Source: a virus (taxonomy: Duplodnaviria; Caudoviricetes). Taken from it: 24,300 nucleotides of DNA. The notes under the pieces were generated by a model. It searched no databases and was not told the origin of the DNA. It saw only the letters and a program-made list of their open reading frames with translations. A program made the position numbers and the translations under genes. Below, piece after piece: positions 1 to 24,300 of the stretch (position 1 is the first letter of the stretch; each line of letters begins with the position of its first letter). The DNA lies in IMG/VR virus record IMGVR_UViG_3300037515_000071, positions 1-24,300 of that record. The stretch is one strand, 5' to 3'.

Positions 1-629
1 CGATCTCTTTCATCCATGAATTGCCATGATTCAAAATGAAATTGAAATTTTCTGCCATCATTTGATATAAAAACATATAACGGTCCTTCTTCATTATATT
101 CATCAAATGCATTGTTCTTATCACCTGCTGTACACCATTTTGTGCCTTTCCCATAATAACATGCTGCTTCCTTTGTTTTTAATTTTAACAATATTCCATC
201 ACTTCCTTTCTTTATAACATCCGCACCTTCTTTCTTTATTTCTATTTTCTCTTGTCTTTTTGATATTTCAGGTGTTAAATTATCTATGATATCTTCCAGT
301 TCATGGAAAGAATATTGATTGATATCTTTTTTTTCTAATTGATGCTTGTTCTTATGAAATTGTTTTAAAGCGGTTTTAACCCGATTGATATCTTCCAATC
401 TAAAAGATTTATTGATATATTCCTTTGCCAGCCATTGAAGATATTTGTTATTAAAATCAGCATCTTGTAATTGTTTTAATATTTCTATAGAAGAAACTTC
501 AGGATTTTTATTATATGCAATATTATCTTGTTTATAAACGGATAATAATTTATCATTTAAATGTTGAGAAAGATATGAAATTTTGTCTTCTAATAAAAGA
601 TATGATGGAAGGATTTGATTTAATTTCAT
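1..629 (-). CDS. Copy 1 (3'-truncated by window edge) of multicopy YGKGTKWCT-domain / variable-repeat protein
   Basis: Not in the ORF track because it runs off the edge. ATG at 629-627 reads MKLNQILPSYLLLEDKISYLSQHLNDK...AACYYGKGTKWCTAGDKNNAFDEY...WQFMDERD. Manual alignment gives about 28 mismatches in 629 nt versus 14885-15513. Confidence 0.93.
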   Translation of the reverse strand, partial: MKLNQILPSYLLLEDKISYLSQHLNDKLLSVYKQDNIAYNKNPEVSSIEILKQLQDADFNNKYLQWLAKEYINKSFRLEDINRVKTALKQFHKNKHQLEKKDINQYSFHELEDIIDNLTPEISKRQEKIEIKKEGADVIKKGSDGILLKLKTKEAACYYGKGTKWCTAGDKNNAFDEYNEEGPLYVFISNDGRKFQFHFESWQFMDERD

Positions 630-653
630 TTTTAAATTCCATAAGATTAAAGA

Positions 654-661
654 TATTTATG
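654..661 (-). promoter_or_regulatory. T4-type late promoter variant CATAAATA upstream of copy 1
   Basis: Plus-strand tatttatg, about 25 nt upstream of the ATG at 629. One mismatch to TATAAATA. Confidence 0.5.
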
Positions 662-739
662 AGAAATTATTTTATCAAATTAAAATTATTTGTAATATTT
701 TAAATATTTCAATTTTTAATTAATATATTATTCTTTTAA

Positions 740-772
740 TATAATTAGGGGGATTTCTCCCCCATAATTATA
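740..772 (-). terminator. Stem-loop / probable intrinsic terminator after SSB gene
   Basis: Minus strand GGGGGA-GAAA-TCCCCC (763-748), extended by TATAATTA/TAATTATA arms, just after the stop at 779. The U-tract is weak. Confidence 0.65.
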
Positions 773-778
773 TTTACT

Positions 779-1684
779 TTATTTCCTACTTAAAATATTT
801 TTAATGAAATCATCTTCATCCGAATCATCAATAATTACTTTAGAATTTTCTACAGTAACAGATTCATCAATATGTGGAATTACAACAGTATTATCATTAG
901 ATGATTCTACATCTTTAGAATCCTCATCAGAAGAATATTTTGGATTAAATTCAACCGCACCATCATGGGCATCCAAATAATGTTGAACTTTTTCTATATG
1001 CGGTTTATCTGGTAACAAATCTTTATAATCAATAAGTTCTATATTGTTTATAAATTCATCAGGTAAAGATGATGGCTTTTTATCAAAATAACTAAATGCA
1101 TAATTATAATGCTCTCCCTGAGTTGTTTTCTTTATATGAAAATTAAATCCATCTTTAAACATCCATGGCGCATTATCATCTTCTTCCATTTGAGACATTT
1201 GATTTTCAAATGCTTCCAATACTTGTGAGCCAAAATTCGATGTGCATACTCTTCCTTCATATTCAACAGTATCACCATTTTCATCCTTAACAGTTAATGG
1301 ACTTTTAAGAACTAAGACTCTAACTAGATTATTACGATTACGCCAATAATAACTGCCTTTCTCTTTATTATTTTCTCTATAATATTTTTGAGACCGCTCA
1401 CAAATTGGACAATCCGTAGTTGAATCAAAAGTTTTTGGACAAATTACTGTTCTTTCTCTTCCATCTATAATTAATTTATGATTAAAACTTTCTATATAAT
1501 ATGGTAAAGGATTATCAGGATTACTATCCGGAATAATCCTTACTACTGCTTCTTCTCCCGCTTCCATATTCCAAAATGGGAAAAAGTTTTTATCAACTGT
1601 ACCTTTAAATGATTGTTGTTTTTTACTACGTTCTTTAAGTCGCTTTTGAATCTCTTGAATTTTTAATGAACTAATTGTAGGCAT
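779..1684 (-). CDS. Single-stranded DNA-binding protein, T4 gp32-like
   Basis: AVVRIIPD, H...CPKTF...DCPICE zinc-type motif, GFNFHIKK, Y..SYF and acidic C-terminal tail (DDSDEDD). SD AAGGAG upstream. Confidence 0.88.
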   Translation of the reverse strand: MPTISSLKIQEIQKRLKERSKKQQSFKGTVDKNFFPFWNMEAGEEAVVRIIPDSNPDNPLPYYIESFNHKLIIDGRERTVICPKTFDSTTDCPICERSQKYYRENNKEKGSYYWRNRNNLVRVLVLKSPLTVKDENGDTVEYEGRVCTSNFGSQVLEAFENQMSQMEEDDNAPWMFKDGFNFHIKKTTQGEHYNYAFSYFDKKPSSLPDEFINNIELIDYKDLLPDKPHIEKVQHYLDAHDGAVEFNPKYSSDEDSKDVESSNDNTVVIPHIDESVTVENSKVIIDDSDEDDFIKNILSRK

Positions 1685-1773
1685 AATTTTACTCCTTTTT
1701 GTTTAACTATCCTAATTATTCTTAACTATCATAAATATTATAACTATTATAATAATATTCTTATTAAACTAAT

Positions 1774-1801
1774 ATTATATAGTTTATTTTCGGCGTGTCA
1801 A
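1774..1801 (-). promoter_or_regulatory. Consensus sigma70-type promoter for SSB gene
   Basis: TTGACA (1801-1796), 16-nt spacer, TATAAT (1779-1774). Confidence 0.75.
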
Positions 1802-2311
1802 GCCTTGAATAAAAATATTATCACGTTCTAGTTCTTCAACCATACGGATAATATGTTTACATACTCCCGAAACCTTTGCGGGATTAACAGGAGGTCTATC
1901 CGTTTTTTTAACATATGGTTTAGGCGGATCAGTAGCTAATGCATTATCTCTATAATTATATATAGCAAATCTATAATGAAAATCTAAACATGTACAACTA
2001 ACTTTAACATTTGATCTACTTCTATTTATTCTATCAAAATAATATTCTGCACCATCAACAGTTACAATGCGAGCAGTTCTTTTCGATGGTTCATCTCTAT
2101 AAAATATATTTTCAAACACTATTCTAGAAATATATTTTCCATTATCAGTTTTAGATTCAGCTTCTACCTCTAAATAATTATCATTAATATAAGGTATAAA
2201 AATTGTATTAGTTATTTTTACATCCGATGCTCTAACATTTCTATCATTTTTAAATGCTCTGTCAGTATTTCTAATTAATTTATCAAATGTAAGTTCTAAT
2301 AGTATATTCAT
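1784..2311 (-). CDS. SWIM-type zinc-finger phage protein
   Basis: VSCTCLDF...GVCKHI (CxC...CxH). ATG at 2311 (MNILLE) preferred over the TTG at 2323. Late promoter upstream. Confidence 0.7.
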   Translation of the reverse strand: MNILLELTFDKLIRNTDRAFKNDRNVRASDVKITNTIFIPYINDNYLEVEAESKTDNGKYISRIVFENIFYRDEPSKRTARIVTVDGAEYYFDRINRSRSNVKVSCTCLDFHYRFAIYNYRDNALATDPPKPYVKKTDRPPVNPAKVSGVCKHIIRMVEELERDNIFIQGLTRRK

Positions 2312-2334
2312 TATAATTTCCAAATATATTTAGA

Positions 2335-2342
2335 TATTTATA
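2335..2342 (-). promoter_or_regulatory. T4-type late promoter TATAAATA
   Basis: Exact match overlapping the terL stop, about 24 nt upstream of ATG 2311. Confidence 0.65.
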
Positions 2343-3933
2343 CTATAAATGGTGGAGAATCATCAAAATCATCTATTATTTCCATATCTTCATTATCCCA
2401 ATAATCATCTTTTGTTATAGATAAAGAATATAATTTATTATATGCCTCTTCATCATTTTCAGCTAAATCATCTAATATTCTTATAATAATCAATATAGCC
2501 GAAATACAATCATCCGTGGAACCTCGTTTTGCCTCATATGCTTTACCCCTTCTAACATAATTTTTTAATTCTTTTAATAATGTAACAGAATGTATATTAA
2601 ATTCATCATTTTCAATTAACGTTTTTAATTTATTAGCATATTTTAATTTTATAGAATCTGTCGTGGTAAATCCGTATCTAGCTTTTCCTGATTCATGTAT
2701 CATAGATACATTTACTGGCAACTCTTCATCATTATCATATAATGATATTATACCTTCACCAACACCATTATTTTCCACTGAAAATAATATTTCACATTCA
2801 TTATTCGTGAAAAACATAAATATTTTCTTTAATAATTCATATATTTGTGTTGATCTAGTTGAATTACTTCTAAATTCCATCACTTGTTCTAAAGATGGAA
2901 ATTCACATATTTCAACCACAGTATGATCAGACCCCGTTCCAGTTGCCGGATCAACACCAACTAAATATGTTGTACCCATTTTAATTGGTACAAAAAATGG
3001 TATATTTTCTAAAGTAAATAAAACATTTGTATTTTTTTCTAAAATTTTATTCTCACGTTCTATAAGAATTCTATTATCTAATAATGTCCCCTCCTCACCT
3101 AAGAAATGACATTCATACTCTTGTAACCATTTTCTCATACCAAATAAATTTATAATACCTTCCCTAAATTTTTCATCTCTATCAGGAGGCATATCCCATT
3201 TTATCCATGTTGGTACAAATTTTAATTCATTTCCACTATATTCTTCCCCAGAAGATAAATCTACACTTAATTCGGCTTGTCTCCATAATTCTGCAAATTT
3301 ATCAGAATCTCCATTTGGAGTAGATGCAATTATACATGATCCACCAGTAGATAATGTTGGCAAAATAGCTGCCCAAAATTCTTCTTGTATAAAATCCGGT
3401 ACCCATGCAAATTCGTCACAAAAAAGTAATGAGATGGATTTACTGCGCCCGGAAGTTTCAGATGTAGTCTCTGCTCTTATAATACTCTTATTTTCAAATT
3501 CACACGTATGTTTATTCCAATTATTTTGATTTATTCCGGGTTTTAACCATGACGGCAATTCTTCATATGAATTTTGTATTTTACTAATAATATCCATAGC
3601 ATTATCAGACTTATTAGACGCAATAAGAATATTTTTAACCTCATTATGCATGGCGTACCACAATAAATATGCAGCGGTCGTTTCTGTTTTCCCCGTTTGT
3701 CTTGCACTCAATACAATATTAAATCTATTATATTGATATTTTAGCATCAAATCTTCTTCATAATCATATAGATCAAATAAAATTTGACCTTTAGTTGGAT
3801 GTTTTATATATACATAATTTCTACAAAAATATATCGGATCATCATGAACCTTTTTAACCTCTATCAACATTTCTGGAGTATATGATTCTTCGGTAAATGC
3901 CTTTTTAAGTTTAGTATTACTACTTCTGCCCAT
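2338..3933 (-). CDS. terL: Terminase large subunit, T4 gp17-like
   Basis: DPIYFCRNYVYI, Walker A SARQTGKT, Walker B LLFCDEFA, ASTPNG, QEYECHF, and RNase H-like nuclease motifs VGVDPATG, VENNGVG, TDDCISA. ATG 3933 preferred over TTG 3945. Confidence 0.96.
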   Translation of the reverse strand: MGRSSNTKLKKAFTEESYTPEMLIEVKKVHDDPIYFCRNYVYIKHPTKGQILFDLYDYEEDLMLKYQYNRFNIVLSARQTGKTETTAAYLLWYAMHNEVKNILIASNKSDNAMDIISKIQNSYEELPSWLKPGINQNNWNKHTCEFENKSIIRAETTSETSGRSKSISLLFCDEFAWVPDFIQEEFWAAILPTLSTGGSCIIASTPNGDSDKFAELWRQAELSVDLSSGEEYSGNELKFVPTWIKWDMPPDRDEKFREGIINLFGMRKWLQEYECHFLGEEGTLLDNRILIERENKILEKNTNVLFTLENIPFFVPIKMGTTYLVGVDPATGTGSDHTVVEICEFPSLEQVMEFRSNSTRSTQIYELLKKIFMFFTNNECEILFSVENNGVGEGIISLYDNDEELPVNVSMIHESGKARYGFTTTDSIKLKYANKLKTLIENDEFNIHSVTLLKELKNYVRRGKAYEAKRGSTDDCISAILIIIRILDDLAENDEEAYNKLYSLSITKDDYWDNEDMEIIDDFDDSPPFIV

Positions 3934-3942
3934 GAAAATATC

Positions 3943-3984
3943 CAATAAATTTAATCATAATGATATTTATGATTAAATTTATTG
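3943..3984. repeat. Perfect 18-bp inverted repeat overlapping terL late promoter and RBS
   Basis: caataaatttaatcataa (3943-3960), 6-nt loop, ttatgattaaatttattg (3967-3984). Contains CATAAATA on the minus strand at 3971-3964. Confidence 0.9.
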
Positions 3985-3998
3985 ATGGATACGTAATA

Positions 3999-4676
3999 CT
4001 AAGAATTTACTGATAATAATTCAAAATCATGCAACCAAGCAGTGGTAGGTTCATGTATATTAATAAATTCTTCCTTTTTTTCAGATTTTACAGAAAGTTC
4101 CCAAGGTAAACGAATATATTCATAATTTTCTTCTCCCCTAAGAGAAGAAAGATATAATTCATAAAGATATTTATTTTTAAAAAATGGACCCGTAAATCCA
4201 AAAATTATTTGTGGTTTAGTAGGGCTATTAATACTACGAAAAATATTATTAATTTCTATTTCATTCATCATATTTGCATTATCTACAATAATTAAATCTG
4301 GGGAAATATATTGACCGGGAACAGATAAATGTGCCGGAGTTAATATTTTAATTTCCGATCCATTTGAAAATTTAATACCGGAACTTCCACTAGAAGATGC
4401 ATTTATCTCTTTAATATTCAAATTTCTATCAAAAATAGATACTGCACCAGTTTTCGCAGAATATAATATATCAGAAACTGTTCTTTCAATATATTTTATT
4501 ATATCAAACCTATTAATAAAATAATAAACTTTAGAATTATAATCTTCTGATGCTCTTAATAATGAATAATTTACTAATATAGAAGTTATTCCTACTTGTC
4601 GTGATCCTTGTATTATATAATTACCGCCACGTCTTATTTTATTGATCTGATGACGCTGATAATCATATAAATACAT
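3999..4676 (-). CDS. Degenerate terminase ATPase-domain paralogue
   Basis: LYDYQ, SRQVGIT (Walker A K>I), FSNGSEI, LIIVDNA (Walker B E>N), IRLPW. Collinear with the N-terminal domain of adjacent TerL; no nuclease domain. Confidence 0.75.
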   Translation of the reverse strand: MYLYDYQRHQINKIRRGGNYIIQGSRQVGITSILVNYSLLRASEDYNSKVYYFINRFDIIKYIERTVSDILYSAKTGAVSIFDRNLNIKEINASSSGSSGIKFSNGSEIKILTPAHLSVPGQYISPDLIIVDNANMMNEIEINNIFRSINSPTKPQIIFGFTGPFFKNKYLYELYLSSLRGEENYEYIRLPWELSVKSEKKEEFINIHEPTTAWLHDFELLSVNS

Positions 4677-6364
4677 TAAAAATTTCCTTTATACTGACCA
4701 TCAATTATATGTATTAAAGTGCGTGTACCATCAGGATAAACGATACAATGAGTATGCATCCAACTACTAGGACCACTTTGATATTCCAAATCTAACATAG
4801 CACTTACGCCAACTTGATATGCGCCTTCCCTAATTCCGGGAGTATGAGAATGAGCTATAATAACTTTTGGACCTATTTTTGAAAAAGAACTTAATGATCC
4901 TCGACTACCATTTGATCCTATATCTCCATGAAATCCAGTTTCTATCCCACATATTACATTACTTTTATCTCGTGCCAAAAAAATAGTATTTTCTTTAGAT
5001 TGTAATCCTTTTTGTTCATCAGGATTAAAACACCAAAATGCGAATGGATCAATAGTTTCAAATCCAGTAGGTGTAATCTTTACATTTTTATATTGATGGT
5101 ATTTCATATAATGATAAAATTTTGCATTTTCCGGATCATCCTTTGGGTCCGACTCACGCAACCATCTATCAAAAGCTTCATCATGATTTGATTTAACTAT
5201 AACATTAATAGTATCCGAGTGAGAATATCTATCTATAACATCGGCTGTTAATTGTAACCCCTCTTCAACATTATTGCGTCCTAAATGATGTTTACCATAT
5301 GAAATAATATCGTTACCTTTATGATGATGATTTCTACGATAAAAATCCTCTACATCATGCCATACTAAATATTTAGGACGTAAGACTCCACATAATGAAT
5401 CATTTCCATCATATGTAGCATGCTCAACATTTTTATCTAAAAATTCAGCATGTGTATCGCCAGTAACCAATCCCATTATTCTTATATTTCTTTTTACATT
5501 AGTTGTAGTATAAAATGAGTCTAAATCATAAAATCCCTTATCTTTATCATTCCAGTGTATATGTCTAATATGATGATGTCCATTAGAATCAACTTCCACC
5601 ACCAATGCTGCAAAATTATGATGAAATGCACCCTTATGTCCAGCTTTAGAATCTGTAAAATTAGGTACGGTTATGCTTCCAGTTGTTGTTAATATTTTTG
5701 GTAGTGATTTATTTGGAGTAGCAATACATCGTAATTCTAATTTTGGATGTCCAAATATTCCAGATGATTCTCCGGTATAACTTTCAAAACCAGATAACGG
5801 ATTTGTAGCAGTTGGTTGTATTTTTATATGTCCCATATATTCTAAAGATTTTCCTAATTTTCTAGAATAATCTTGAATATAAGATTTTATATCCTCATTC
5901 CACCATTCAGAATCCATATTTTTAGATGTCCACATAGACGTAGGATTTTTATATCTTAATGGTATAATTAATAATTCTGCATTATTAATATTGCAATAAT
6001 TCAAAATAGTATTAAGAAATTGATGATTTATTGGAGTAGCATTTTGTGCAGATGTTATAATATATCTTTTATTAATTTCATATTCATCTAATCTGATAGG
6101 TCCAAATTTGTCTTTTAATTCTTGAATAGCAATTTCAAATATATCAAGTTTATCAGTAGGAATATTATATTCTCCAGACAAATCAATAAGAGGCAATCTC
6201 AATCCAGTCTTTTCAAATACTTTTAATCTTTTACGCATTATTGTATCGGGTATAATACCGAGATAACTAGCCAATTGTTCACGACTTAAATTAGCGTTTA
6301 ATGCTGCCCTATATTGTATAATAAAATATTCAGTGCTAGACGGACCAGCTATTAAATAATCCAT
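4676..6364 (-). CDS. Calcineurin-like metallophosphoesterase / nuclease, T5 A1-like
   Basis: Metal motifs GDTH, WHD..D, SNHD, FHGD, AHSH. Blocks RYIITSAQNAT, PTATNPLSGF and KAGHKGAFHHNFAALVVE match my recollection of T5 A1. Possible N-terminal HTH (SREQLASYLGI). Confidence 0.78.
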   Translation of the reverse strand: MDYLIAGPSSTEYFIIQYRAALNANLSREQLASYLGIIPDTIMRKRLKVFEKTGLRLPLIDLSGEYNIPTDKLDIFEIAIQELKDKFGPIRLDEYEINKRYIITSAQNATPINHQFLNTILNYCNINNAELLIIPLRYKNPTSMWTSKNMDSEWWNEDIKSYIQDYSRKLGKSLEYMGHIKIQPTATNPLSGFESYTGESSGIFGHPKLELRCIATPNKSLPKILTTTGSITVPNFTDSKAGHKGAFHHNFAALVVEVDSNGHHHIRHIHWNDKDKGFYDLDSFYTTTNVKRNIRIMGLVTGDTHAEFLDKNVEHATYDGNDSLCGVLRPKYLVWHDVEDFYRRNHHHKGNDIISYGKHHLGRNNVEEGLQLTADVIDRYSHSDTINVIVKSNHDEAFDRWLRESDPKDDPENAKFYHYMKYHQYKNVKITPTGFETIDPFAFWCFNPDEQKGLQSKENTIFLARDKSNVICGIETGFHGDIGSNGSRGSLSSFSKIGPKVIIAHSHTPGIREGAYQVGVSAMLDLEYQSGPSSWMHTHCIVYPDGTRTLIHIIDGQYKGNF

Positions 6365-6388
6365 ATTAAAATACTCCTTGATATTATT

Positions 6389-6904
6389 TCATTCAGAAGA
6401 ATCTTTATCATAATCAACAGATTCTATAACAGACTTATCATTCTTGTCAAGATTATCATCCTTATTTAAATATTTCATCAATTCTTGAAAAGTTCCAACA
6501 AATACATTATTAATATTTCCTTTTGGATTTTTCCCGGATGATTCTAATAATCGTTCTTTTTGTTGTAATGTATCTATATGTTGCTTCATTATTCTTCTTT
6601 TTTCCGCCGAAGATAATGCGGTATTTAACATTATGGCCGCAACTTCAGCTAATCTGCTTACTTTATTCTGTTCGGCATCATCTATCTCATCTAAAAGAAG
6701 TTCGTATAATTCAAGAGATTTATCATATATATTTAAAAAATCCTCTTCAATTTCTTCATCTTTTAAATCATAATCTTCGGATTTTATAGCGATACTTTTA
6801 ATTTTAGTTTTAACAACTTCAGTAGTTCCACATGGAACACCTAAAGCTTTCTCAAAGGAATGATTAATTTGTTGAACTTTCTTTTCAATTTTTTGATCTG
6901 TCAT
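6389..6904 (-). CDS. terS: Terminase small subunit, T4 gp16-like
   Basis: Helical acidic protein with SRLAEVAA and C-terminal NNVFVGTFQELMKYL, typical of gp16-like proteins. Lies upstream of terL with a late promoter. Confidence 0.7.
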   Translation of the reverse strand: MTDQKIEKKVQQINHSFEKALGVPCGTTEVVKTKIKSIAIKSEDYDLKDEEIEEDFLNIYDKSLELYELLLDEIDDAEQNKVSRLAEVAAIMLNTALSSAEKRRIMKQHIDTLQQKERLLESSGKNPKGNINNVFVGTFQELMKYLNKDDNLDKNDKSVIESVDYDKDSSE

Positions 6905-6908
6905 ATAT

Positions 6909-7085
6909 CTATTTATTACTATTTTTAATATCTATAACATCAAATAATAATTTCAAATTAATATTTATATTAGGCGATATTCCATATTGATGCTGCGCCC
7001 ATGTATTAAAATCAAAACTTTTACCTAATATATTGTGTTTAATATAATTTTTATATTCTTCAATAATTTTATCATGCTTGTTCAT
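6909..7085 (-). CDS. Small hypothetical protein (58 aa), absent from ORF track
   Basis: MNKHDKIIEEYKNYIKHNILGKSFDFNTWAQHQYGISPNININLKLLFDVIDIKNSNK*. GAGG SD; fills the gap between neighbouring genes. Confidence 0.65.
   Translation of the reverse strand: MNKHDKIIEEYKNYIKHNILGKSFDFNTWAQHQYGISPNININLKLLFDVIDIKNSNK
6962..6969 (-). promoter_or_regulatory. T4-type late promoter TATAAATA upstream of terS
   Basis: Exact match about 58 nt upstream of ATG 6904. Confidence 0.55.
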
Positions 7086-7299
7086 TTGATGTTTCCTCTT
7101 TGATTATATTACTTATATCATTAGCAATCTTATTTTTTATACCCAATGCAGAATACATAAGAACTTGATGTTGATATAATATTTTTTCCATATCTTCTCG
7201 TACTGAATCATATAAACTAACTAAATCTCTTATTGATTTAGGTAATTCATCTACATTCATTGTTTTCCCGTTCACTTCAAATTGTGTTGTATTTTCCAT
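7072..7299 (-). CDS. Small hypothetical coiled-coil protein
   Basis: 75-aa ORF tightly packed after the helicase, with GGAG upstream. Confidence 0.75.
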   Translation of the reverse strand: MENTTQFEVNGKTMNVDELPKSIRDLVSLYDSVREDMEKILYQHQVLMYSALGIKNKIANDISNIIKEETSNEQA

Positions 7300-7303
7300 A
7301 ATA

Positions 7304-8668
7304 TTATAAACTCTCCATAAATTGTATTAAACTAATACCATTTTCATTTAATGTTGTTTTTTCATTTTCAAATTCTAATCCTGATATGTATTCTAAATCT
7401 CCATTTAACTGTTTTCTACGACGAGCCAAATCAAATAAATTATTATTATTTGAATCACCAGTATCAGTTATACGTAATGTTTTTGCATCATAATGTAAAG
7501 GTATTGATTTACCTACTCCGCCAGAATTTCTAGTCTTTAAAAAGAATGCTAACATTTCTCCTCTTAATCTCATTTGTTTATCCATATATAATGATATTAC
7601 ATTATCTACTGTATTAAGTTTAGTCAGTCCCCCACCAATTACATCTTGTTCAGGGGCTGCATTTCCTATTGCTTCTCTATTTTGTTGACTAGCAGTTGCG
7701 CATATCATATTATAATCATACACTAATTCTGCTAATTGTTCACTCTTAAATTTATCCTGCTCAGATATAGACAATTTAGAAACCCCTTGGTTTGGTGTCA
7801 TTTTATCCAAATAATCAACAATTAAAACATCAGGAGTTTTTTTAAATTCTAATTCATAATGTGTTAAATATGAACGTATATCATTAGTTGTGGCATTTCC
7901 ATTAATTCGTTCTATAATTAATGATCCAATTGTTTTTGATCTTACATTTGTAATAACAGAAGAAATTTCAGATTTATAATCCTGTAAAAAATCCACATCA
8001 TATCCAGAAATAATAGCAGATGATCTAGCAAATACCATCGTTCTAGGCAATTCCAAAGATAAATATACAACATTTAAACCTTGTGCTGAATAATTATATG
8101 CAAGATTATTCAACATTATAGACTTACCAATACCAGAATTAGCAGTAAATATAGTAACTTGTTGACGTGATAATCCACCTTTTAAATTTTTATCTAATGC
8201 TTTTATTCCAGTAGATTCAGTTTCTTGCTGTGCTAATGCTGCCTCTAATTTTTCTAAAAAATCTTCTGAAAAAATTTCCCATCCTAAATCTCTTTTTAAA
8301 GATATATCAACTGCTGCCTTCATCCGTTCTACAATAATACCCAAATTACCAGCTTGTAAATCATTTGTTGATTCTAACATAGCCAAAGCAACTGCTGATT
8401 CTTTACAAAATTTTTCAATTTCATCACATGTATATGCTATCTTATCAGTTGGGGTAATTTGTGATTTTAAATTTAAATCATATTCTGCATTAATAGTATC
8501 TATATCAGGTATAGAATTATATTTTGAAAAATATTCTAATGCAAATTTAGTGGCTAATTTTATTTCGCCATCAAAATATTCTGGTTTTATTATTGATATA
8601 CATCTTGAGAAAACATCATTTGAAGATAATAATATTTCAAACAGATGCTTCTGTTTCTTCATTTCCAA
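7304..8668 (-). CDS. Replicative DnaB-family helicase, T4 gp41-like
   Basis: STGIKALD, Walker A ANSGIGKS, YLSLEL, Walker B LIVDYLD, TASQQNR, LKTRN. Confidence 0.94.
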   Translation of the reverse strand: MEMKKQKHLFEILLSSNDVFSRCISIIKPEYFDGEIKLATKFALEYFSKYNSIPDIDTINAEYDLNLKSQITPTDKIAYTCDEIEKFCKESAVALAMLESTNDLQAGNLGIIVERMKAAVDISLKRDLGWEIFSEDFLEKLEAALAQQETESTGIKALDKNLKGGLSRQQVTIFTANSGIGKSIMLNNLAYNYSAQGLNVVYLSLELPRTMVFARSSAIISGYDVDFLQDYKSEISSVITNVRSKTIGSLIIERINGNATTNDIRSYLTHYELEFKKTPDVLIVDYLDKMTPNQGVSKLSISEQDKFKSEQLAELVYDYNMICATASQQNREAIGNAAPEQDVIGGGLTKLNTVDNVISLYMDKQMRLRGEMLAFFLKTRNSGGVGKSIPLHYDAKTLRITDTGDSNNNNLFDLARRRKQLNGDLEYISGLEFENEKTTLNENGISLIQFMESL

Positions 8669-8692
8669 TTATACATACTCCAATTTGATAAA

Positions 8693-8721
8693 ATGATAAA
8701 CTAATAATTAACATATTGCAA
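8693..8721 (-). promoter_or_regulatory. Sigma70-type promoter for helicase operon
   Basis: TTGCAA (8721-8716), 17-nt spacer, TATCAT (8698-8693), followed by GGAG SD. Confidence 0.6.
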
Positions 8722-8734
8722 GTGGTAAATTAAA
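8698..8734 (-). repeat. 37-bp non-coding tail shared by copies 2 and 3
   Basis: aaactaataattaa(c/a)atattgcaagtg(g/a)taaattaaa; 35/37 identical to 14403-14439. Confidence 0.92.
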
Positions 8735-9730
8735 TTATTTTATTGAGTTTAAAAATTGTTTATATCTATGTAAATATATTACATCTTTTGCTATAACCTT
8801 TTCACCCTCAGAAAATCTTCCTTTAATTACATTTTTGGCATATAAATATGAATATTCTTTATCTGTTGCTATAATTTTTTCTCCTTCAGGAAATCTACCT
8901 TCAATTACATTCATTGCATAATAATATGAATATCTTGCATTTGTTGCTATAATTTTTTCTCCTTCAGGAAATCTGCCTTCAATTACACTTTCTGCATAAT
9001 GATATGAAGTTATTGCATTTGTTGCAAATTCTTTTTCTTTTCTTTTAAAAAATGAATTAACAGTTGGATATTTTTCCATCACCTTTTTAACATTAATTTT
9101 TTTATCTCTTTCATCCATAAATTGCCATGATTCAAAATGAAATTGTAACTTCCTGCCATCATTCGATATAAAAACATATAACGGTCCTTGTTCATTATAT
9201 TCATCAAATGCATTGTCCTTATCACCCGTTGTACACCATTTTGTGCCTTTTCCATAATAACATGCGGCTTCTTTTGTTTTTAATTTCAATATAATTCCGT
9301 CGCTTCCTTTTTTTATAACATCTGCACCTTCTTTCTTTATTTCTGTTTTCTCCTGTTTTTTGGATATTTCAGGTGTTAAATTATCAACCACATCTTCAAG
9401 TTCATGCAATGAATATTCATTTATATCTTTCCTTTCCAATTGATGCTTGTTCTTATGAAATTGCTTTAAGACGGTTTTAACCCGATTGATATCTTCCAAC
9501 CTATAAGATTTATTGATATATTCCCTTGCTAGCCATTGAAGATATTTGTTATTGAAATCAGCAGTTTGTAATATTTTTAATATTCCCATTGAAGATAAAT
9601 CTTTATTTTTATCATATGCAATATTATCTTGTTTATAAACAGATAATAATTTATCATTTAAATGTTGAGAAAGATATGAAATTTTATCCTCTAATAAAAG
9701 ATATGATGGAAGGATTTGATTTAATTTCAT
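8735..9730 (-). CDS. Copy 2 of multicopy YGKGTKWCT-domain protein, 3 C-terminal 26-aa repeats
   Basis: 331 aa, near-identical to copies 1 and 3. Start overlaps the upstream stop (ATGA). Domain is possibly PcfJ-like (WC motif); function unknown. Confidence 0.93.
   Translation of the reverse strand: MKLNQILPSYLLLEDKISYLSQHLNDKLLSVYKQDNIAYDKNKDLSSMGILKILQTADFNNKYLQWLAREYINKSYRLEDINRVKTVLKQFHKNKHQLERKDINEYSLHELEDVVDNLTPEISKKQEKTEIKKEGADVIKKGSDGIILKLKTKEAACYYGKGTKWCTTGDKDNAFDEYNEQGPLYVFISNDGRKLQFHFESWQFMDERDKKINVKKVMEKYPTVNSFFKRKEKEFATNAITSYHYAESVIEGRFPEGEKIIATNARYSYYYAMNVIEGRFPEGEKIIATDKEYSYLYAKNVIKGRFSEGEKVIAKDVIYLHRYKQFLNSIK
8783..9016 (-). repeat. 3 x 78-bp coding tandem repeat
   Basis: Units xxxSYxYAxxVI(E/K)GRF(P/S)EGEK(I/V)IA(T/K)(D/N) at 9016-8939, 8938-8861 and 8860-8783. 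Confidence 0.95.
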
Positions 9731-11403
9731 TTTTTGAACTCTTCATCAATTTCATCAGGTCTAGTAACTGTTGATGTATCAGGATTAAAAAATTCCTGTA
9801 ATCTAGGTTCAATAACAGAATTATAAGCTCTTTTATCAGTTTCTAAATATATCCATGTATTCTTTTCCGTAGAAAATCTATATAACCTTGGAGGTATACC
9901 CTGTCTAATATTACTATAAGTTAATCTATGATAATCACCATTTTTTGGAGATGGAGGGAAATTATCACCTTGCGTAAATGATTCACCATTTGGGGGCATG
10001 GCATCTTGTCCCCATATATTTCCAACTCTATCTTTCCGTTTTAAATTAGCATCTCCATGTTTTTCTTCCCATTCATATAATTCTGGAGAAAATTTTTGAA
10101 CATTTGCAAAATCTTCCCCACGTTCAGGAACTTCTGTATTTGCTTGAGCACTTATAGTGTGGTCAATATCAAATATATCTTGATATTTCTTATTATTAAT
10201 ACCATCATTTGTATCTGCCAACCCAGTTTCATCATAATCTTCCGTTAATTTTCCAAAAATATCTTGAGTTTCCGGAGAAGCAAATGCCGGTTCAGCTATA
10301 ATTCGAACTAATAATGGTATCCATTGTGGAGAATAACCGTTCGGACTCCATGCAACATCTATTATAGTTAAATATTTTAAAACTGGAGTTAATGATACAG
10401 TATATTGAGTTTCACTAGGTAATTGTATTATATCTCCTATAACTAACGGTCTGCCAATAACTCTAATTATATCTGACCAATTAAATTCTATAAAATATTG
10501 TTCACTATTAAAATTATTAGCTAAACCTAATTTACTAATAAATGCTTGGGTATCAAATGGTGTATAAGAACCTTTCAATTTTTCCGGAAATTCTGCATAA
10601 TCTCTATCTCTATTTTCCATTAATAATTTATCTTGAATGTTATTTATTTGTGTTTTTTCATATTCAATTAATTGTAACGCTTGTATGCCCCAATAATCAT
10701 TTTCCCCTCCACCAAACTCTATTGGACGAATTCTCCAATATCTTGATGGAACAGACGCCCTAAAATCAATTGTAACAATACCATCACAATCCTGCACATC
10801 AGAAATACCAACACCATACCATTTTTTTCCATCATGAGAACGTTCTAATCTTATTTTTTTCACTTTATTAATTGTATCACACCCTTGTTTTATTCTTATA
10901 CGACTTATATTATGTTTAATAAAAGTCTCTATTCCATATCGTAATCTATTATTATCTAATTTTATTTCTCCAAAATCATAACCAATATATGAATTTTTAA
11001 CAATATTTTCTCCTAATTGTAATGATCTCCACTCTGTATTAAATAAATCAAAAGCATTTTTCGCTTTAAAATTAGGATGATCACCACCAGAAATAGCAAT
11101 TCCATCACCTGTCAAATCTTGTAATTTGCCTTGTTCATGAATTCCTAATAATTTATATACATTAATATCAGCACCACCAATATTAAGCTGCTCATTTAAA
11201 TAAGAATCAATAATACATGCATCAGAAGAATTTTCTGTTATTTCCCATGGACTTCTGAAGTTATCTACGGGACATAATTGCCCATCACGAATCTCAACAC
11301 ACATACCATCAAAACATGTATTTGAATCTCCATTATTAATAGTATCATCGGTTTGACATTCATCAAATGGAATCTTTTCTATTGTACAAGTATCCTTAGT
11401 CAT
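9727..11403 (-). CDS. Neck / head-closure protein (gp14-like) with inserted discoidin (F5/8 type C)-like domain
   Basis: EQLNIGGADINVYK, IQDKLLMENRDRDY and IGDIIQLP; lies next to the gp13-like gene. Insert has NAFD...W, YIGYDFG, LERSHDGKKW and SRYWRI. Confidence 0.65.
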   Translation of the reverse strand: MTKDTCTIEKIPFDECQTDDTINNGDSNTCFDGMCVEIRDGQLCPVDNFRSPWEITENSSDACIIDSYLNEQLNIGGADINVYKLLGIHEQGKLQDLTGDGIAISGGDHPNFKAKNAFDLFNTEWRSLQLGENIVKNSYIGYDFGEIKLDNNRLRYGIETFIKHNISRIRIKQGCDTINKVKKIRLERSHDGKKWYGVGISDVQDCDGIVTIDFRASVPSRYWRIRPIEFGGGENDYWGIQALQLIEYEKTQINNIQDKLLMENRDRDYAEFPEKLKGSYTPFDTQAFISKLGLANNFNSEQYFIEFNWSDIIRVIGRPLVIGDIIQLPSETQYTVSLTPVLKYLTIIDVAWSPNGYSPQWIPLLVRIIAEPAFASPETQDIFGKLTEDYDETGLADTNDGINNKKYQDIFDIDHTISAQANTEVPERGEDFANVQKFSPELYEWEEKHGDANLKRKDRVGNIWGQDAMPPNGESFTQGDNFPPSPKNGDYHRLTYSNIRQGIPPRLYRFSTEKNTWIYLETDKRAYNSVIEPRLQEFFNPDTSTVTRPDEIDEEFKK

Positions 11404-11404
11404 A

Positions 11405-14323
11405 TTAACCTAATATAAAATGTGCGCCCATTCCAGCTTCTTCTAAATTTTGCATAGAGGCATCTTCTAATTCTAATTTCAATTCAGATATTTCTGATTC
11501 TGCCTGAGTAATTAATTCTTGAGAATTTAATGTAGTACTTCCCTGTGGTCCGGGTAATGTTTGAAATTTACCTCGTATTTGTGAAAGCATCATTTTACTT
11601 TCAGCAAGTGACCACCGTTTAACCCATTCAACAGTTTCTCTATTTGAAAATATTTCTTGTTCTGTGCATTCTATATATGTATCTAATAAGACTCTTTCAG
11701 GACCATATACTGTATGATATAATTTTAACTCCCTAGTATTTTCTACCCAATCAAATGTTATATGATCAGCAAACATTATTTGTAAATCTTCAGTATAGGC
11801 AGAAACTAAATGATAACTTAACATATCAAATGTTCCAGTTCTATACAAATGAACAAGTGCCTGATATCCAAATATATCATATGCCCCTCTGGATACACCA
11901 TTCAAAAATCCTGAACGTAATCTATATATATAATTTATACCAGTAATTTTATTAAATCCAACACATCTATTAGTTAAAATATATCGTTGTTGATTTGGCT
12001 TTAAATCTAAAAAGAAATATGTCCTATGATATCCATAACCAGAATATTTTCTTACCATTATTAATGCAGAATTTATAGCCTCATCTATTTGATCATCAGT
12101 TAATTCAACTTTTTGTGTTGGATGCCCTAATTTTTGACGTATTATTCTATGTAAATTTCTTCTCTCATCAGGACTTCCATCATCACCAATTCCTAACGCA
12201 AGATAACTAGGTCCTTTTTCTAATCTAGATGCTCCATTTACTGGATCATAATATATTACAGTAGTCCCCAATTGTGTGAATAAATTTCCAGCCTCTATAA
12301 CAATTCTTATACTTTGTGTACATCCAACAGCAGAAGTTATAAAACATAAACTATTTCTCTCGGTAGATGTATTTGGATTTATTAAAATAACTTCAGCTAT
12401 TGAATCGCCATCTATCCATGTAATTCCATTCCATATGTATAATTTATCATCAACAGTATTCAAAACTAATAAATTAATTTCAGGATAAAATAATGAATCA
12501 ACTGTATCAATTTCTATCCATGTACTTCCATCCCATTGATATAATAAATTAACAGATGTATTATACCAAAAATCATTAATATTAATAATATATGGATCGG
12601 TAGTTGCAATTATTGGAATAATATCAACCCACCCACCTATACCATTAGATACTTTAAATTCATTATCAGAATTAAGCCATCCAACCCCATCTCCAATAAG
12701 TGTTGGATCAGAAGGATAATCAATATATTCTGCATCTTTAAATTTACAGTCTACAGTAGTTAATAATTGTAATTTTTCAGTATCTGGATTATACCAAGCA
12801 CTATCATTTTCTAATTCTGGTGGATTTGATGGATCAATAGAGGATTGTACAAATGAATTTACTAATATCCACGAACTTGATAATTCATCCCATGTGTATA
12901 ATTCATCTGCTAAAGAATTCCACCACAAATCACAACTTTTTCTATCTGTTGGATCAGATGGAGATAAAATAAAATCTAAATTTATCCACTCAGTATTTGT
13001 GCTATTTCTTCTATAAAATAATTGTTCTGATGGAATATACCAATATTGATTTCCCACGGGAGAATCTAATGTACCAGCCTCATTTCTTTCACTATATTCA
13101 ATATTAACCAAATTTTCCCATATTGAATTTACTAATACTTTCATTTCCAAATTATTTTGATTATACCAATAATCACCAACTCCTATAATATTTGGATCAA
13201 TACTAGAATAAATAACATCATTTTCTTCCCAACCATTTTTATCCAAATCCCAGCCATATAATATGAAATTTGCTATATCATACCAGTAATCATCACAAGA
13301 CATAACAGGAGGTAATAGAGGGCTTGTACTTTGTATATATGTAACTAATTTACACCAATGAGAATTCTCCCATATCCAAGCATTAGTTCCATCAAACCAA
13401 AGAGCATCACAAGTCGGATTAACCGGATCATATGATAATTTTAATAGTGGTACTGTCGCCCATCCACCACTTTCATAAACATATAAAATTTCTCCATCAT
13501 ACCAATATGAACCCAATACTGGAATAGTTAAATCAGCAGAATTTATAATTACATCAATTTCTTCATACTGATCAAAATTCCATTTATATAATTTATTATT
13601 ATCAGAGTCAAAATAATAATGTATGGCATTTAAATCCTTACTTTCTGCATCAGTTATAAGTTTAAATTCTTCATTTACAGCAGTAACTAAATCTCCATAT
13701 GTTAATGCATCCGCACCATCTATTTCTATTTCATATTCTGTTCCATTTATTATAATTTTAAAATTATATTCTGTCCCATCTACTAATCCAGTAATGGTAG
13801 AATTTTCAACAGGATTTAAATCCAATCCAATATCATATCTCGCAGGTGTATCAACAGACGAATTATATTCATCAGGTCCAGTAGGAAGTGAATAAGCATG
13901 AACACCCTCTCTATGATAACGTCCAACATTATCAACAGCATATGCAGAAACATAATATGGAGTCTTTTCTAACACATTTTGTACAAGTAATGTTTTTGTG
14001 ATCTTATCATGATAAAATGCACCAACTACCCTAGAATCATCAATTTTATCACCCGCATGCAATTCCGGATCAAAAGTAGGATCGGCGGAATAATATGTTT
14101 CATTTTTCGGAGATGATTCAATATAATTAGCAGGTTTATCAGATACTAAAATAACAATACCATCATATGCCTGATCTTCAACAGAACATCCAGCAACTGG
14201 AACAGGAATGTTCCATTTAATAATACCAGTACCATCACCATTTCTAACAAATGCTAAATCAATTTGTTGACCTTCTGATTTTATTTGATTTGGTGAATCA
14301 TGGAATCCATCATAAATTCCCAT
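11405..14323 (-). CDS. Neck protein (gp13-like C-terminal domain) with long Trp-rich repetitive N-terminal extension
   Basis: C-terminal IRQKLGHPTQKVELTDDQIDEAI and WVKRWSLAESKMMLSQIRGKFQTLPGPQG. Many P..GDYWY....LY.W....W units. SD AAGGAG. Confidence 0.8.
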   Translation of the reverse strand: MGIYDGFHDSPNQIKSEGQQIDLAFVRNGDGTGIIKWNIPVPVAGCSVEDQAYDGIVILVSDKPANYIESSPKNETYYSADPTFDPELHAGDKIDDSRVVGAFYHDKITKTLLVQNVLEKTPYYVSAYAVDNVGRYHREGVHAYSLPTGPDEYNSSVDTPARYDIGLDLNPVENSTITGLVDGTEYNFKIIINGTEYEIEIDGADALTYGDLVTAVNEEFKLITDAESKDLNAIHYYFDSDNNKLYKWNFDQYEEIDVIINSADLTIPVLGSYWYDGEILYVYESGGWATVPLLKLSYDPVNPTCDALWFDGTNAWIWENSHWCKLVTYIQSTSPLLPPVMSCDDYWYDIANFILYGWDLDKNGWEENDVIYSSIDPNIIGVGDYWYNQNNLEMKVLVNSIWENLVNIEYSERNEAGTLDSPVGNQYWYIPSEQLFYRRNSTNTEWINLDFILSPSDPTDRKSCDLWWNSLADELYTWDELSSSWILVNSFVQSSIDPSNPPELENDSAWYNPDTEKLQLLTTVDCKFKDAEYIDYPSDPTLIGDGVGWLNSDNEFKVSNGIGGWVDIIPIIATTDPYIININDFWYNTSVNLLYQWDGSTWIEIDTVDSLFYPEINLLVLNTVDDKLYIWNGITWIDGDSIAEVILINPNTSTERNSLCFITSAVGCTQSIRIVIEAGNLFTQLGTTVIYYDPVNGASRLEKGPSYLALGIGDDGSPDERRNLHRIIRQKLGHPTQKVELTDDQIDEAINSALIMVRKYSGYGYHRTYFFLDLKPNQQRYILTNRCVGFNKITGINYIYRLRSGFLNGVSRGAYDIFGYQALVHLYRTGTFDMLSYHLVSAYTEDLQIMFADHITFDWVENTRELKLYHTVYGPERVLLDTYIECTEQEIFSNRETVEWVKRWSLAESKMMLSQIRGKFQTLPGPQGSTTLNSQELITQAESEISELKLELEDASMQNLEEAGMGAHFILG

Positions 14324-14348
14324 AAATATAATCTCCTTATACTAAAAG

Positions 14349-14356
14349 TATTTATA
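14349..14356 (-). promoter_or_regulatory. T4-type late promoter TATAAATA
   Basis: Exact match about 26 nt upstream of ATG 14323. Confidence 0.7.
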
Positions 14357-14402
14357 ATATATTGGGGTATTTAATTAATCTTCTAATTTAAATTTAGTGG
14401 TG

Positions 14403-14439
14403 AAACTAATAATTAAAATATTGCAAGTGATAAATTAAA
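14403..14439 (-). repeat. 37-bp non-coding tail shared by copies 2 and 3
   Basis: 35/37 identical to 8698-8734. Retains TTGCAA at 14421-14426 but lacks the -10 hexamer. Confidence 0.92.
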
Positions 14440-15513
14440 TTATTTTATTGAATTTAAAAATTGTTTATATTTTCTTAAATAATATGCATCTGTTGCTATA
14501 ATTTTTTCACCTTCCGGAAATCTGCTTTTAATTACATATATTGCATAATAAACTGAATATTCGGCGTCTGTTGCTATAATTCTTTCACCTTCAGGAAATC
14601 TACCTTCAATTACATTTAATGCATAATAATATGAATAAACTACATCTGTTGCTATAATTTTTTCACCTTCCGGAAATCTACCTTCAATTACATCTCTTGC
14701 ATATTGATATGAATATAATACATCTGCTGCTATAATTTTTTCACCTTCAGGAAATCTACCTTCAATTACATTTACTGCATATTGATATGAATCATATGCA
14801 TTTTTTGTTATATCTTTTTCCTTATCTTTAAAAAATGAATTAACCGTTGGATATTTTTCCATTAATTCCTTAACATTAATTTTTTGATCTTTTTCATCCG
14901 TGAATTGCCATGATTCAAAATGAAATTGAAATTTCCTGCCATCATTCGATATAAAAACATATAATGGACCGTCTTCATTATATTCATCAAATGCATTGTT
15001 CTTATTACCCGCTGTACACCATTTTGTGCCTTTCCCATAATAACATGCCGCTTCTTTTGTTTTTAATTTTAATATAATTCCATCACTTCCTTTCTTTACA
15101 ACATCCGCACCTTCTTTCTTTATCTCTAATTTCTCCTGTCTTTTTGATATTTCAGGTATTAAATTATCTATAATATCTTCCAGTTCATGCAATGAATATT
15201 GATTGATATCTTTTTTTTCTAATTGATGCTTGTTCTTATGAAATTGTTTTAAAGCGGTTTTAACCCGATTGATATCTTCTAATCTATAAGATTTGTTGAT
15301 ATATTCCTTTGCAATCCATTGAAGATATTTGTTATTAAAATCAGCATCTTGTAATTGTTTTAATATTTCTATAGAAGAAACTTCAGGATTTTTATTATAT
15401 GCAATATTATCTTGTTTATAAACGGATAATAATTTATCATTTAAATGTTGAGAAAGATATGAAATTTTGTCTTCTAATAAAAGATATGATGGAAGGATTT
15501 GATTTAATTTCAT
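14440..15513 (-). CDS. Copy 3 of multicopy YGKGTKWCT-domain protein, 4 C-terminal 26-aa repeats
   Basis: 357 aa, exactly one 26-aa unit longer than copy 2. Confidence 0.93.
   Translation of the reverse strand: MKLNQILPSYLLLEDKISYLSQHLNDKLLSVYKQDNIAYNKNPEVSSIEILKQLQDADFNNKYLQWIAKEYINKSYRLEDINRVKTALKQFHKNKHQLEKKDINQYSLHELEDIIDNLIPEISKRQEKLEIKKEGADVVKKGSDGIILKLKTKEAACYYGKGTKWCTAGNKNNAFDEYNEDGPLYVFISNDGRKFQFHFESWQFTDEKDQKINVKELMEKYPTVNSFFKDKEKDITKNAYDSYQYAVNVIEGRFPEGEKIIAADVLYSYQYARDVIEGRFPEGEKIIATDVVYSYYYALNVIEGRFPEGERIIATDAEYSVYYAIYVIKSRFPEGEKIIATDAYYLRKYKQFLNSIK
14488..14799 (-). repeat. 4 x 78-bp coding tandem repeat
   Basis: gctataat recurs at 14495, 14573, 14651 and 14729 (period 78). Confidence 0.95.
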
Positions 15514-21943: not shown

Positions 21944-24300
21944 ATGTATATTTCATCTATGTTAGACCCGGACTATAAAAATGTTATAGTCTGGGAAAGA
22001 AAAAATGGTAAACGGATACGAAAAATATATGATCCAGAATTAAATTTTTATGTGAAATATAAAGATGGAGAATATAAAGATGTTTATGGAAATAATCTAG
22101 CAAAGTTGGAATTTAACACATCTAAAGAATATTTTCAAACCAGAAAAGAATTACGAATAAAAGAGATAGATTTATATGAATCTGATATTTCTTTAGAGCA
22201 AAAAATATTATCAAAGTATTATTATAATACTGCAATTCCTGAATTAAATATTGTATTTTTTGATATTGAGGTTGATTATGATAAATTTATAGGATTTTCA
22301 GGAGTAAAGAATCCTTATGCTCCAATTAATTCTATTTCTTTATATTTTTATAATACGAATGAAAGATTAATTATAACCATTCCTCCTCAATATAGTCCAT
22401 ATAATCCATCAGACACACAATACAGCATAGAAGACTGTTCGACTAAATTATTAGATTCTTGTAAGATAATTTTTTGTAAAGATGAAAAAGAATTATTAAA
22501 TACATTTTTAGATTCTATTAAAGATTATGATCTAATATCAGGATGGAATTCTGATTATTTTGATGTTCCCTATATTTATAAAAGAATTAACAAAATATTA
22601 GGACCACGGTCTACTAAAAGATTATGTTTTCAAAATTCAAAAAATCCAATTATACGAGAAGTAGAAAGAGAAATTTTTGAAGGATTTAAGACAACAGAAG
22701 AAATTGTTATATTATATGGAAGAAAATCTATAGATTATAAAAGAATATATCAAAAATTTGTTAAAGAAAATAAATCATCATATTCATTAGATAATATTGC
22801 AAAAGAAGAATTATTAAATTATAAAAAATTAGAATATGAAGGATCATTATATGATTTATATAGAAATGATTTTATTTATTATCTTGAATATAATATGGTG
22901 GATACTGAAATTATTGTAAAATTAGAAGAAAAATTAAAATATTTAAATCTTGCTATAGAATTATCACACATGGCAACTACAGAGATAGAAAGCGTGTACG
23001 GAACTATACGACTTGCGGAATCCGCCATAATCAATTATTGTAATTATGTATTAAATGCTCGCGTACCGGATTCAAAACGACATGATTATTATTCCAAATA
23101 TGGAGGAGCAATTGTATTTGAACCAGAGGCTGGAGAATATAATATGATTGGCTCTGTAGATGTAGAATCATTGTATCCAACGGCATTAATATGTATCAAT
23201 GCCAGCCCTGAAACATTGATAGCGCAATTTGTAGAAAATGAAGCAGCATATATTAATATTTTTAATAATACAGGAGAATTATTAACTTTACATTATGAAG
23301 ATGGAAATATAGAAACAAAAACAACTGATGAATGGAAAAAATATTTTCAAACAGAAAAATATGCATTAAGTGCATATGGTACAGTATTTTCTCAAACTAA
23401 AGATGGGTTTATACCTGCAATATTAAAAGAATGGTTTGATGAAAGAAAAAAATATAAAAAATTAATGAATGAATATAAAATTCAATTAGAAAACATCGAT
23501 GAAAATAATTCTGAATATATGGAATTGAAATTGAAATTTGAATTATATGATAGATTTCAACATATTAAAAAAATTCAATTAAATTCATTATATGGTTGTA
23601 TGGGCAACAAATATTTTAAATTTTTTGATATTAGATTAGCAGAATCTACAACAAAAACAGGTAGAGAAATATTATTTCATTTAACCCGGCAAATTGGTAA
23701 AGATTTAAATGGAAAATATGAATATCCTAATGATTCAGTTATATACGGGGACTCAGTAGCCAAAGATTCTTTATTATATGTGGATGACGGAAATAGTCAA
23801 ACAATAGAAAATTTATTTGATTCTATAGATAATATTATTGGTGATAAGGAATATCATCACCCTGAAAATTTAAAGGTTTTAACTTATGATTCAAATATAA
23901 ACAAGTCATGTTATAAACCAGTTAAATACATTATGCGACATAAAAACAGGAAAAAAATGTTCAGAGTGTGGTTTACAAACTCAACGTACATAGATGTAAC
24001 AGAAGATCATTCACTTATGGGATATGTAAATGTACAAAAAAGAAAAACTTGTAACAGTCCTTTGCATGAAGTAAAACCAGAAGAAATAGGTAATGATATA
24101 AAAACTATTATTTGGTTAAAACGTATACCGCGACTATATAAATTAAATTCAAAAGAATATTCAAAAGAATTTTTTGAAATTATGGGTTTAGTTATTGGTG
24201 ACGGCGGATGTCATTCTATAAATTCCGGAGTAGAATTATCATTAGGATTTAAAGATAAAGATGAAATAATTGAAAAGACAATAACCCCCCTTATTGAACA
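21944..24300 (+). CDS. polB: Family B DNA polymerase (3'-truncated), intein-containing
   Basis: Own translation from ATG 21944: ExoI FFDIEVD, Exo[14 protein letters not shown], ExoIII YNMVD, motif A [9 protein letters not shown], motif B [10 protein letters not shown], motif C IYGD at 23741-23752. Confidence 0.96.
   Translation, partial: [785 protein letters not shown]
23753..24300 (+). mobile_element. Intein with LAGLIDADG homing endonuclease at the pol-c site (partial)
   Basis: YGD is followed by SVAKDS rather than TDS. Block B DVTEDHSL (about 23993-24016) and LAGLIDADG-like [10 protein letters not shown] (24176-24205). Confidence 0.93.

Follow-up and report, generated by a model that had tools for sequence, protein, structure and literature searches.

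A T4-like jumbo phage was found to carry at least four copies of one gene, which are real, intact and recently duplicated. We regard them as a lineage-specific four-copy expansion of a probably head-packaged protein that joins a conserved domain to a repeat solenoid, and we infer an effector role for the product.

The window, i.e., the whole stretch of DNA analysed, is an entire virus contig of 24.3 kb with genes for SSB, terminase, helicase, an Ad2 head-tail adaptor, two tube proteins, a head closure protein and DNA polymerase. Over its full length, the neck protein is 43–45% identical to its counterparts in XacN1, Xoo-sp13, CM1 and RAS14. The DNA polymerase contains an intein (23786–24300), and a 225-aa ORF between the terminase gene and a phosphoesterase-like gene (4002–4676) resembles a degenerate terminase ATPase domain (weak ResIII match). 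On contig L003, a 581-aa gene (1776–3521) has been inserted ahead of the scaffold gene in the opposite orientation; judged by an MGSCFA motif, its product resembles proteins of the GSCFA type. Endonuclease-like genes lie behind the sheath gene (L093:101–1717) and the major capsid gene (L001:742–2382), and neither had a match in the searched pieces of the related phage genome G011. A sigma-70 promoter scan stayed at background (136 sites versus 137 expected).

Gene copies and their assembly

Open reading frames were confirmed at the three places where a preliminary description of the window had located the same gene (<1–629, 8735–9730 and 14440–15513), all on the minus strand. Copy A (1–629), downstream of the SSB gene, is partial, as the contig ends inside it. 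Copy B (8735–9730) encodes 331 aa with three repeats, and its start overlaps the stop of a 558-aa gene of the neck region. Copy C (14440–15513), downstream of a 242/254-aa gene, encodes 357 aa with four repeats. The arrays of 78-nt repeats comprise 3.2 units in copy B and 4.4 units in copy C. The three window copies share 88–96% nucleotide identity. In an ungapped comparison of the first 629 nt, copies A and C were identical at 601 positions (95.5%), in agreement with the claimed value of about 95%. The term near-identical, which had been used for all three copies, suits this pair but not copy B, which matched A at 566 (90.0%) and C at 565 of the 629 positions (89.8%). The copies had also been placed between core genes. 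The SSB gene, the genes for the neck-region protein and the helicase, and the Ad2 adaptor gene were found as neighbors, but the adjacency of copy C and the neck gene is probably chimeric.

Three contigs from other assemblies were assigned to the same phage. Outside the copies, L001 and L002 agree with the window at every position over about 16 kb, and L093 is tied to it by 109 identical nt. L001 harbors a fourth allele, copy D, which encodes 305 aa with two repeats and lies behind a capsid-lysis block and before the neck gene. Copy B together with both flanks is identical in two assemblies, one of them represented by L001. The expectation that more copies exist elsewhere in the genome was thus borne out: the distinct upstream flanks number at least four and harbor the SSB gene (A), the 558-aa gene (B), the 242/254-aa gene (C) and a 224-aa gene (D); on the downstream side, three flanks are unique. 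The four alleles differ by 4–18%, mostly with a synonymous bias. They form one clade with the allele P0004 (support 100/100), whose source was sought and not found; it may be a fifth copy or derive from a sister phage. Allele P0001 (409 aa, six repeats) probably consists of the 5' half of D and the 3' half of A, a reading that would give arrays of 2, 3, 4 and 6 units.

The complete genome of G011 (316.8 kb), the core proteins of which are 49–84% identical, had no match to the gene family. The flanking genes are directly adjacent in G011 at all four copy sites, and XacN1 has the same uninterrupted gene order at sites A, B and D. The search for empty sites in relatives, which had been proposed as a check, was thus positive, and we concluded that the copies are insertions specific to this phage lineage.

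Contig sequences and synteny served as the basis for assessing the gene joins. The 242-aa gene of G011 terminates at 283.2 kb and faces the tail sheath gene; on the same strand, the neck gene starts at about 202.4 kb. The window order of 242-aa gene, copy C and neck gene skips about 81 kb of the G011 order, including the sheath and major capsid genes, and this predicts that copy C ends beside the sheath gene. Contig L093 starts with the last 99 nt of copy C and 10 more identical nt, followed by a convergent NUMOD3 endonuclease-like gene and the sheath gene. The join of copy C to the neck gene is probably an assembly chimera, in which the 5' portion of one copy has been connected to the sequence that follows a different copy. 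Its probable site is the 3' segment in which copies C and D agree exactly (final 162 nt of the gene; 14430–14601, minus strand). A real join, produced by deletion or block rearrangement between direct copies that act as rearrangement hot spots, appears improbable. The direct orientation of the 242-aa and neck genes in G011, the 162 identical nt at the 3' ends of C and D, and the different joins in each of three assemblies would suit it, but it would delete the 81 kb with the sheath and major capsid genes. Moreover, the flanks contain no SNPs between assemblies, the paths diverge only within copies, and L002 ends in a patchwork of pieces that overlap by 21–30 nt, as is typical of graph paths. 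Breaks and mis-joins within copies could also be expected if all copies were artefacts of a single gene. This is barely credible and largely refuted by the divergence of the four alleles, the identity of copy B and its flanks in two assemblies, and the unique upstream and downstream flanks. The case illustrates that gene order across such copies can be wrong in metagenome contigs.

Possible sequence exchange and mode of insertion

Several tracts are identical between the otherwise divergent copies. Copies A and C share 198 nt (gene nt 1–198; 432–629, minus strand; permutation P = 0.0001), A and D share 108 nt (gene nt 522–629; 1–108, minus strand; P = 0.002), and C and D share the 162 nt mentioned above. 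Such tracts suggest gene conversion, as read from sequence comparison. Real conversion is best supported for the C/D tract, where one and the same 3' end precedes two different flanks; the A/C and A/D tracts could be partly assembler-made. A four-taxon runs test on 20 informative sites gave no recombination signal (P = 0.34). The mosaic alleles P0001 and P0002, like the end of L002, were not accepted as evidence of in vivo shuffling, as assembler paths through common tracts suffice to produce them.

The ends of the copies are ragged. Copies A and D have a 46-nt 5' flank in common (630–675, minus strand), which includes a late-promoter-like ATAAATA motif at 654–661, and copies B and C have almost no common 5' flank. 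At the 3' side, the common flank measures about 37 nt or 9–10 nt; the 37-nt flank of copy B (8698–8734, minus strand) is similar to the neck-side flank at 14403–14439. Neither inspection by eye nor a repeat search revealed terminal inverted repeats, target-site duplications or fixed ends. Ragged ends of this kind fit recombination-driven copying and not transposition. Dedicated diversifying machinery was not found, and no reverse transcriptase was present among the 22 window proteins scanned. Diversity-generating retroelements introduce adenine-specific substitutions against a template repeat. The copies depart from this pattern: C/T and G/T changes occur among the variable codons, and synonymous differences are found all along the unit.

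Architecture of the product and variation of the repeats

The architecture given in the preliminary description, with a leader, the motif YYGKGTKWCT, three or four 26-aa repeats and a cap, was found as claimed. The AlphaFold2 model (mean pLDDT 91) consists of a disordered leader, a helical bundle up to aa 118, a core of aa 136–232 and a two-helix solenoid. In copy C, all on the minus strand, the 14-aa leader ending in L-L-E (15472–15513) is a predicted capsid-targeting propeptide, based on the T4 motif described in PMC9026906. It is followed by the modeled N-terminal helical bundle (aa 15–118; 15160–15471), the alpha/beta core (aa 136–232; 14818–15108) and four 26-aa two-helix repeats with hypervariable positions 4, 5, 8, 11 and 12 (14494–14805). 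The three 26-aa repeats of copy B lie at 8789–9022 (minus strand). In 57 aligned cores, the residues G, T, W, C, T and Y around GTKWCT are invariant.

Pfam, PHROGs and NCBIfam offered no named family for the copies, and the best PHROGs were two of unknown function. The sequence search of the PDB gave only a chance PPR match, Foldseek against the PDB gave nothing at E ≤ 0.001, and two metagenome scans, from which the phage's own or very near records were possibly excluded, gave no match. A PcfJ-like or GNAT fold had been suggested for the constant domain. VIA-align matched the core weakly to the N-terminal half of several GNATs, which is a strand-helix-helix-strand-strand-strand-helix arrangement; many GNATs were among the top-ranked matches, the best being SidF with Z 5.8 over 94 residues and an rmsd of 4.4. 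Across matches, Z was 5.3–5.8 for SidF and 4.6 for RimL, with rmsd values of 3.3–4.6 and Z within the range that the tool calls common. In GNATs, the fifth strand forms the acyl-CoA cleft, and motif A provides a Gly-rich loop. The model has no such fifth strand, with only helices after residue 205, and the 57 cores have no conserved Gly after the last strand. In the Foldseek search of BFVD, PcfJ-like proteins were the first named group below true homologs (E 0.06–0.7, TM 0.44–0.59), and PcfJ was also the nearest named family by language-model features (Atlas 0.88–0.89). PcfJ (PF14284) has a similar alpha/beta layout, but the W-C-T of the copies corresponds to H-C-I in the PcfJ example. PF14284 did not match the window proteins and was absent from the 25 families listed for 48 members, a list that covers every family matched by two or more members; hhalign of the core profile against one PcfJ sequence gave no match. 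The suggestion thus holds as a weak structural resemblance, and the sequence match to PcfJ and the two GNAT features are missing. At best, the core is a PcfJ/half-GNAT-like module, and we assigned it to neither family. Judged by the model, it is probably not a canonical acetyltransferase.

A true PcfJ protein, scoring over the Pfam cut-off, is encoded by L077 (G001:C1:212639–215830), 12 kb from a copy of the family in G001. It has the same overall architecture, with a leader-like start and C-terminal LRR-like repeats. The relative L040 carries an amidoligase domain.

The constant region showed pN/pS values of 0.08–0.27 in all six pairs of copies, which demonstrates purifying selection. Across 413 repeats from other genomes, entropy was highest at positions 8, 4, 5, 11 and 12. 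In the model, these five positions lie on the long helix of each unit, with the spacing of one helix face. For the eight distinct local units, pN at the five sites was 0.52 versus a pS of 0.19 (0.21 for the whole unit), and pN at the other 21 sites was 0.10; these values are uncorrected, the pairs among the eight units are non-independent, and AT-rich codons depress pS. For these reasons, the values are suggestive of diversifying selection at the five sites and no proof of it. The proposal of a constant domain joined to diversified arrays was supported for the conserved region and for one variable repeat face. For the proposed reshuffling, assembler paths can explain most of the mosaics. The arrays are predicted, with somewhat better than even chances, to be target-binding surfaces. 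In L052 (7677–11546) and L054 (9658–13777), a stand-alone constant-domain gene is followed by five or six short genes that contain only a common short N-terminus and 26-aa repeats; this arrangement may be a split trans-acting version or represent spare cassettes.

Probable packaging, distribution and possible function

The targeting propeptides of T4 internal proteins comprise 10–19 aa and are cleaved after L/I-X-E, and some of these proteins are injected, e.g., the anti-restriction protein IPI (PMC9026906). The 14-aa leader ending in LLE falls within this range and has this motif. The leader pattern was present in 64 of 82 homologs versus 12.7% of 1,073 control ORFs, and of 247 N-terminal modules, 233 had L/I/F-x-E within their first 24 residues. 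The polyproteins P0123, P0124, P0127 and P0226 contain 2–5 modules, often with an L/I-x-E site before each, and are likely cut into units in the head. In polyproteins, an L/I-x-E-like motif preceded 61 of 111 internal modules, many of them near-duplicates, versus 11% of 1,754 control windows.

The homolog gp205 of phage PA5oct (QCG76086.1; 37.5% identity over aa 1–241, E 1e-45) was detected in virions with 20 peptides and 55% coverage (PMC7318152, supplement sheet S5). It shares the leader, the helical bundle and the core, the last of these with a Foldseek TM of 0.86, and is encoded near the terminase and SSB genes. In contrast to the window copies, it is a single copy, and its C-terminal half is not composed of the 26-aa repeat. 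ATAAATA, which by analogy with T4 would be a late promoter, lies 32 nt upstream of copies A and D and also precedes the neck, tube, sheath, scaffold and terminase genes. It is absent before copies B and C and before the SSB, helicase and polymerase genes. The virion-detected homolog and the leader support the virion association that had been proposed for the gene product. The product of the copies is very probably packaged in the virion, and its injection together with the DNA is predicted with fair probability. Bacterial chromosomal homologs without a leader (L172, L174, L175, L179, L183, L185, L187, L188 and L190–L192) indicate that packaging is not universal to the domain.

The core profile retrieved 9,901 clusters at 50% identity (E ≤ 0.001), for which there is no Pfam or NCBIfam model. 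Among cultured phages, only 14 records matched: a single place was found in each of 11 Pseudomonas phage records and two CcrBL9 records, and six places in SCTP-2. Five large records were searched: G001 has five copies at three sites, G002 has a tandem run of six, and G003, G004 and G005 have one core each, as do three further fragments. Copies within these other genomes share 67–84% DNA identity where alignable. G001, G002, SCTP-2 and L008 each formed separate within-genome clades in a tree of 39 hand-chosen rows. Multi-copy expansion thus recurs in the family, with independent events in several jumbo phages, and is not peculiar to the window phage, which shows the youngest expansion among those compared. 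Elsewhere, the C-terminal partners include DUF4116, WG, LRV, ankyrin, TPR and DUF285 repeats, with a Pfam match of any kind in 10 of the 28 proteins scanned. Bacterial homologs include proteins with DUF4116 repeats in Archangium and Vitiosangium, a solo core in Devosia and several copies with ankyrins in a Rickettsiales MAG. The BFVD matches A0A481YZT2, A0A481Z016, A0A481YW50 and A0A1V0SEJ3 are labeled Marseillevirus/Indivirus and have ankyrin or FNIP repeats. We found no description of the domain, the repeat or such recent dispersed copies in the literature; the supplements of PMC7824862 and PMC5512222 may name the domain.

As the best explanation of the whole, we tentatively propose, at slightly less than even odds, duplicated domain-plus-solenoid proteins that are packaged in the head, injected and bind host targets. 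Recombination, with no transposase involved, would have placed the copies in the intergenic regions that follow other genes. The leader would target the product to the prohead and be cleaved there after L-x-E. After injection alongside the DNA, the stack of variable repeats would capture a host target for the half-GNAT/PcfJ-like domain, which may act via a pocket around the invariant T-x-W-C-T, either as a binding site or as a Cys-dependent modifying site. Copies may swap tracts by gene conversion, and unequal crossing-over may add or remove units (2, 3, 4 and probably 6), so that each array would have its own specificity. Counter-defence or host takeover early in infection seems the most likely role and is predicted with similar reserve.

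Some observations speak against this explanation: the gene is missing from close relatives, a single copy occurs in each of 11 Pseudomonas phage records, and the virion evidence comes from a homolog without the 26-aa repeats. Alternatively, the product could sit inside the head or belong to its core and serve as a structural component or as filler, the paralogs resulting from phage recombination and the repeat variation from relaxed constraint at exposed positions. We consider this rather unlikely, although the heads of jumbo phages hold paralog families of variable size to which no function has been assigned to date, and the authors of PMC5694885 raise non-essential duplication. The leader and the late-type motif would suit any head protein, and the gene is absent from G011 and XacN1. 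On the other hand, pN exceeds and does not equal pS at the five sites, the core has invariant polar and Cys residues, and it is paired with many unrelated binding-type repeats, also in bacteria. A selfish mobile gene, the product of which drives its own copying into intergenic sites, is still less probable. All four copies lie just behind conserved genes at sites that are empty in G011, and the lineage also has endonuclease-like insertions and an intein, but the ends are ragged and lack terminal inverted repeats or target duplications, the copies match no nuclease or transposase fold or family, and other phages commonly have tandem arrays or single copies.

Beyond the proposed injected effectors, a wider idea is considerably more speculative and itself unlikely to hold in full. 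Time and again, jumbo phages would have expanded a huge, unnamed superfamily of head-packaged half-GNAT modules into sets of injected binders. Ectopic conversion and repeat shuffling would diversify one helix face without reverse transcriptase and provide an adjustable panel against host defence proteins, and the copies would also rearrange genome blocks. The head cargo of jumbo phages is mostly without assigned function, and this domain can be tested in cultured PA5oct. Most differences among the four young copies fall on five repeat positions, so that the copies amount to a ready-made series of specificities. Should host defence proteins be what the arrays bind, the phage would have its own equivalent of recognition repertoires built from repeats.

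The copies resemble several known systems in part. Mature T4 internal proteins showed no sequence or fold match to them. IPI–IPIII and Alt of T4 also have a short N-terminal L-x-E leader and are dispensable, lineage-variable cargo (PMC9026906); the window copies differ from them by the repeat array and the recent dispersed duplication. GNATs and other packaged effectors were proposed in phage polyvalent proteins and in phiKMV Rac, with a packaged, host-modifying role (PMC5512222 and PMC7824862), and it is the N-terminal half of GNATs to which the core aligns. Membership in the polyvalent protein class was rejected, as the class, defined in PMC5512222, needs several unrelated enzymatic domains in one chain, whereas the window copies have one core plus repeats. 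Giant phages also have head paralog families, such as families A and B of SPN3US, with a copy number that varies between phages (PMC5694885). These families belong to phiKZ-like phages, whereas the window copies are 88–96% identical at the DNA level, scattered, and equipped with variable solenoids.
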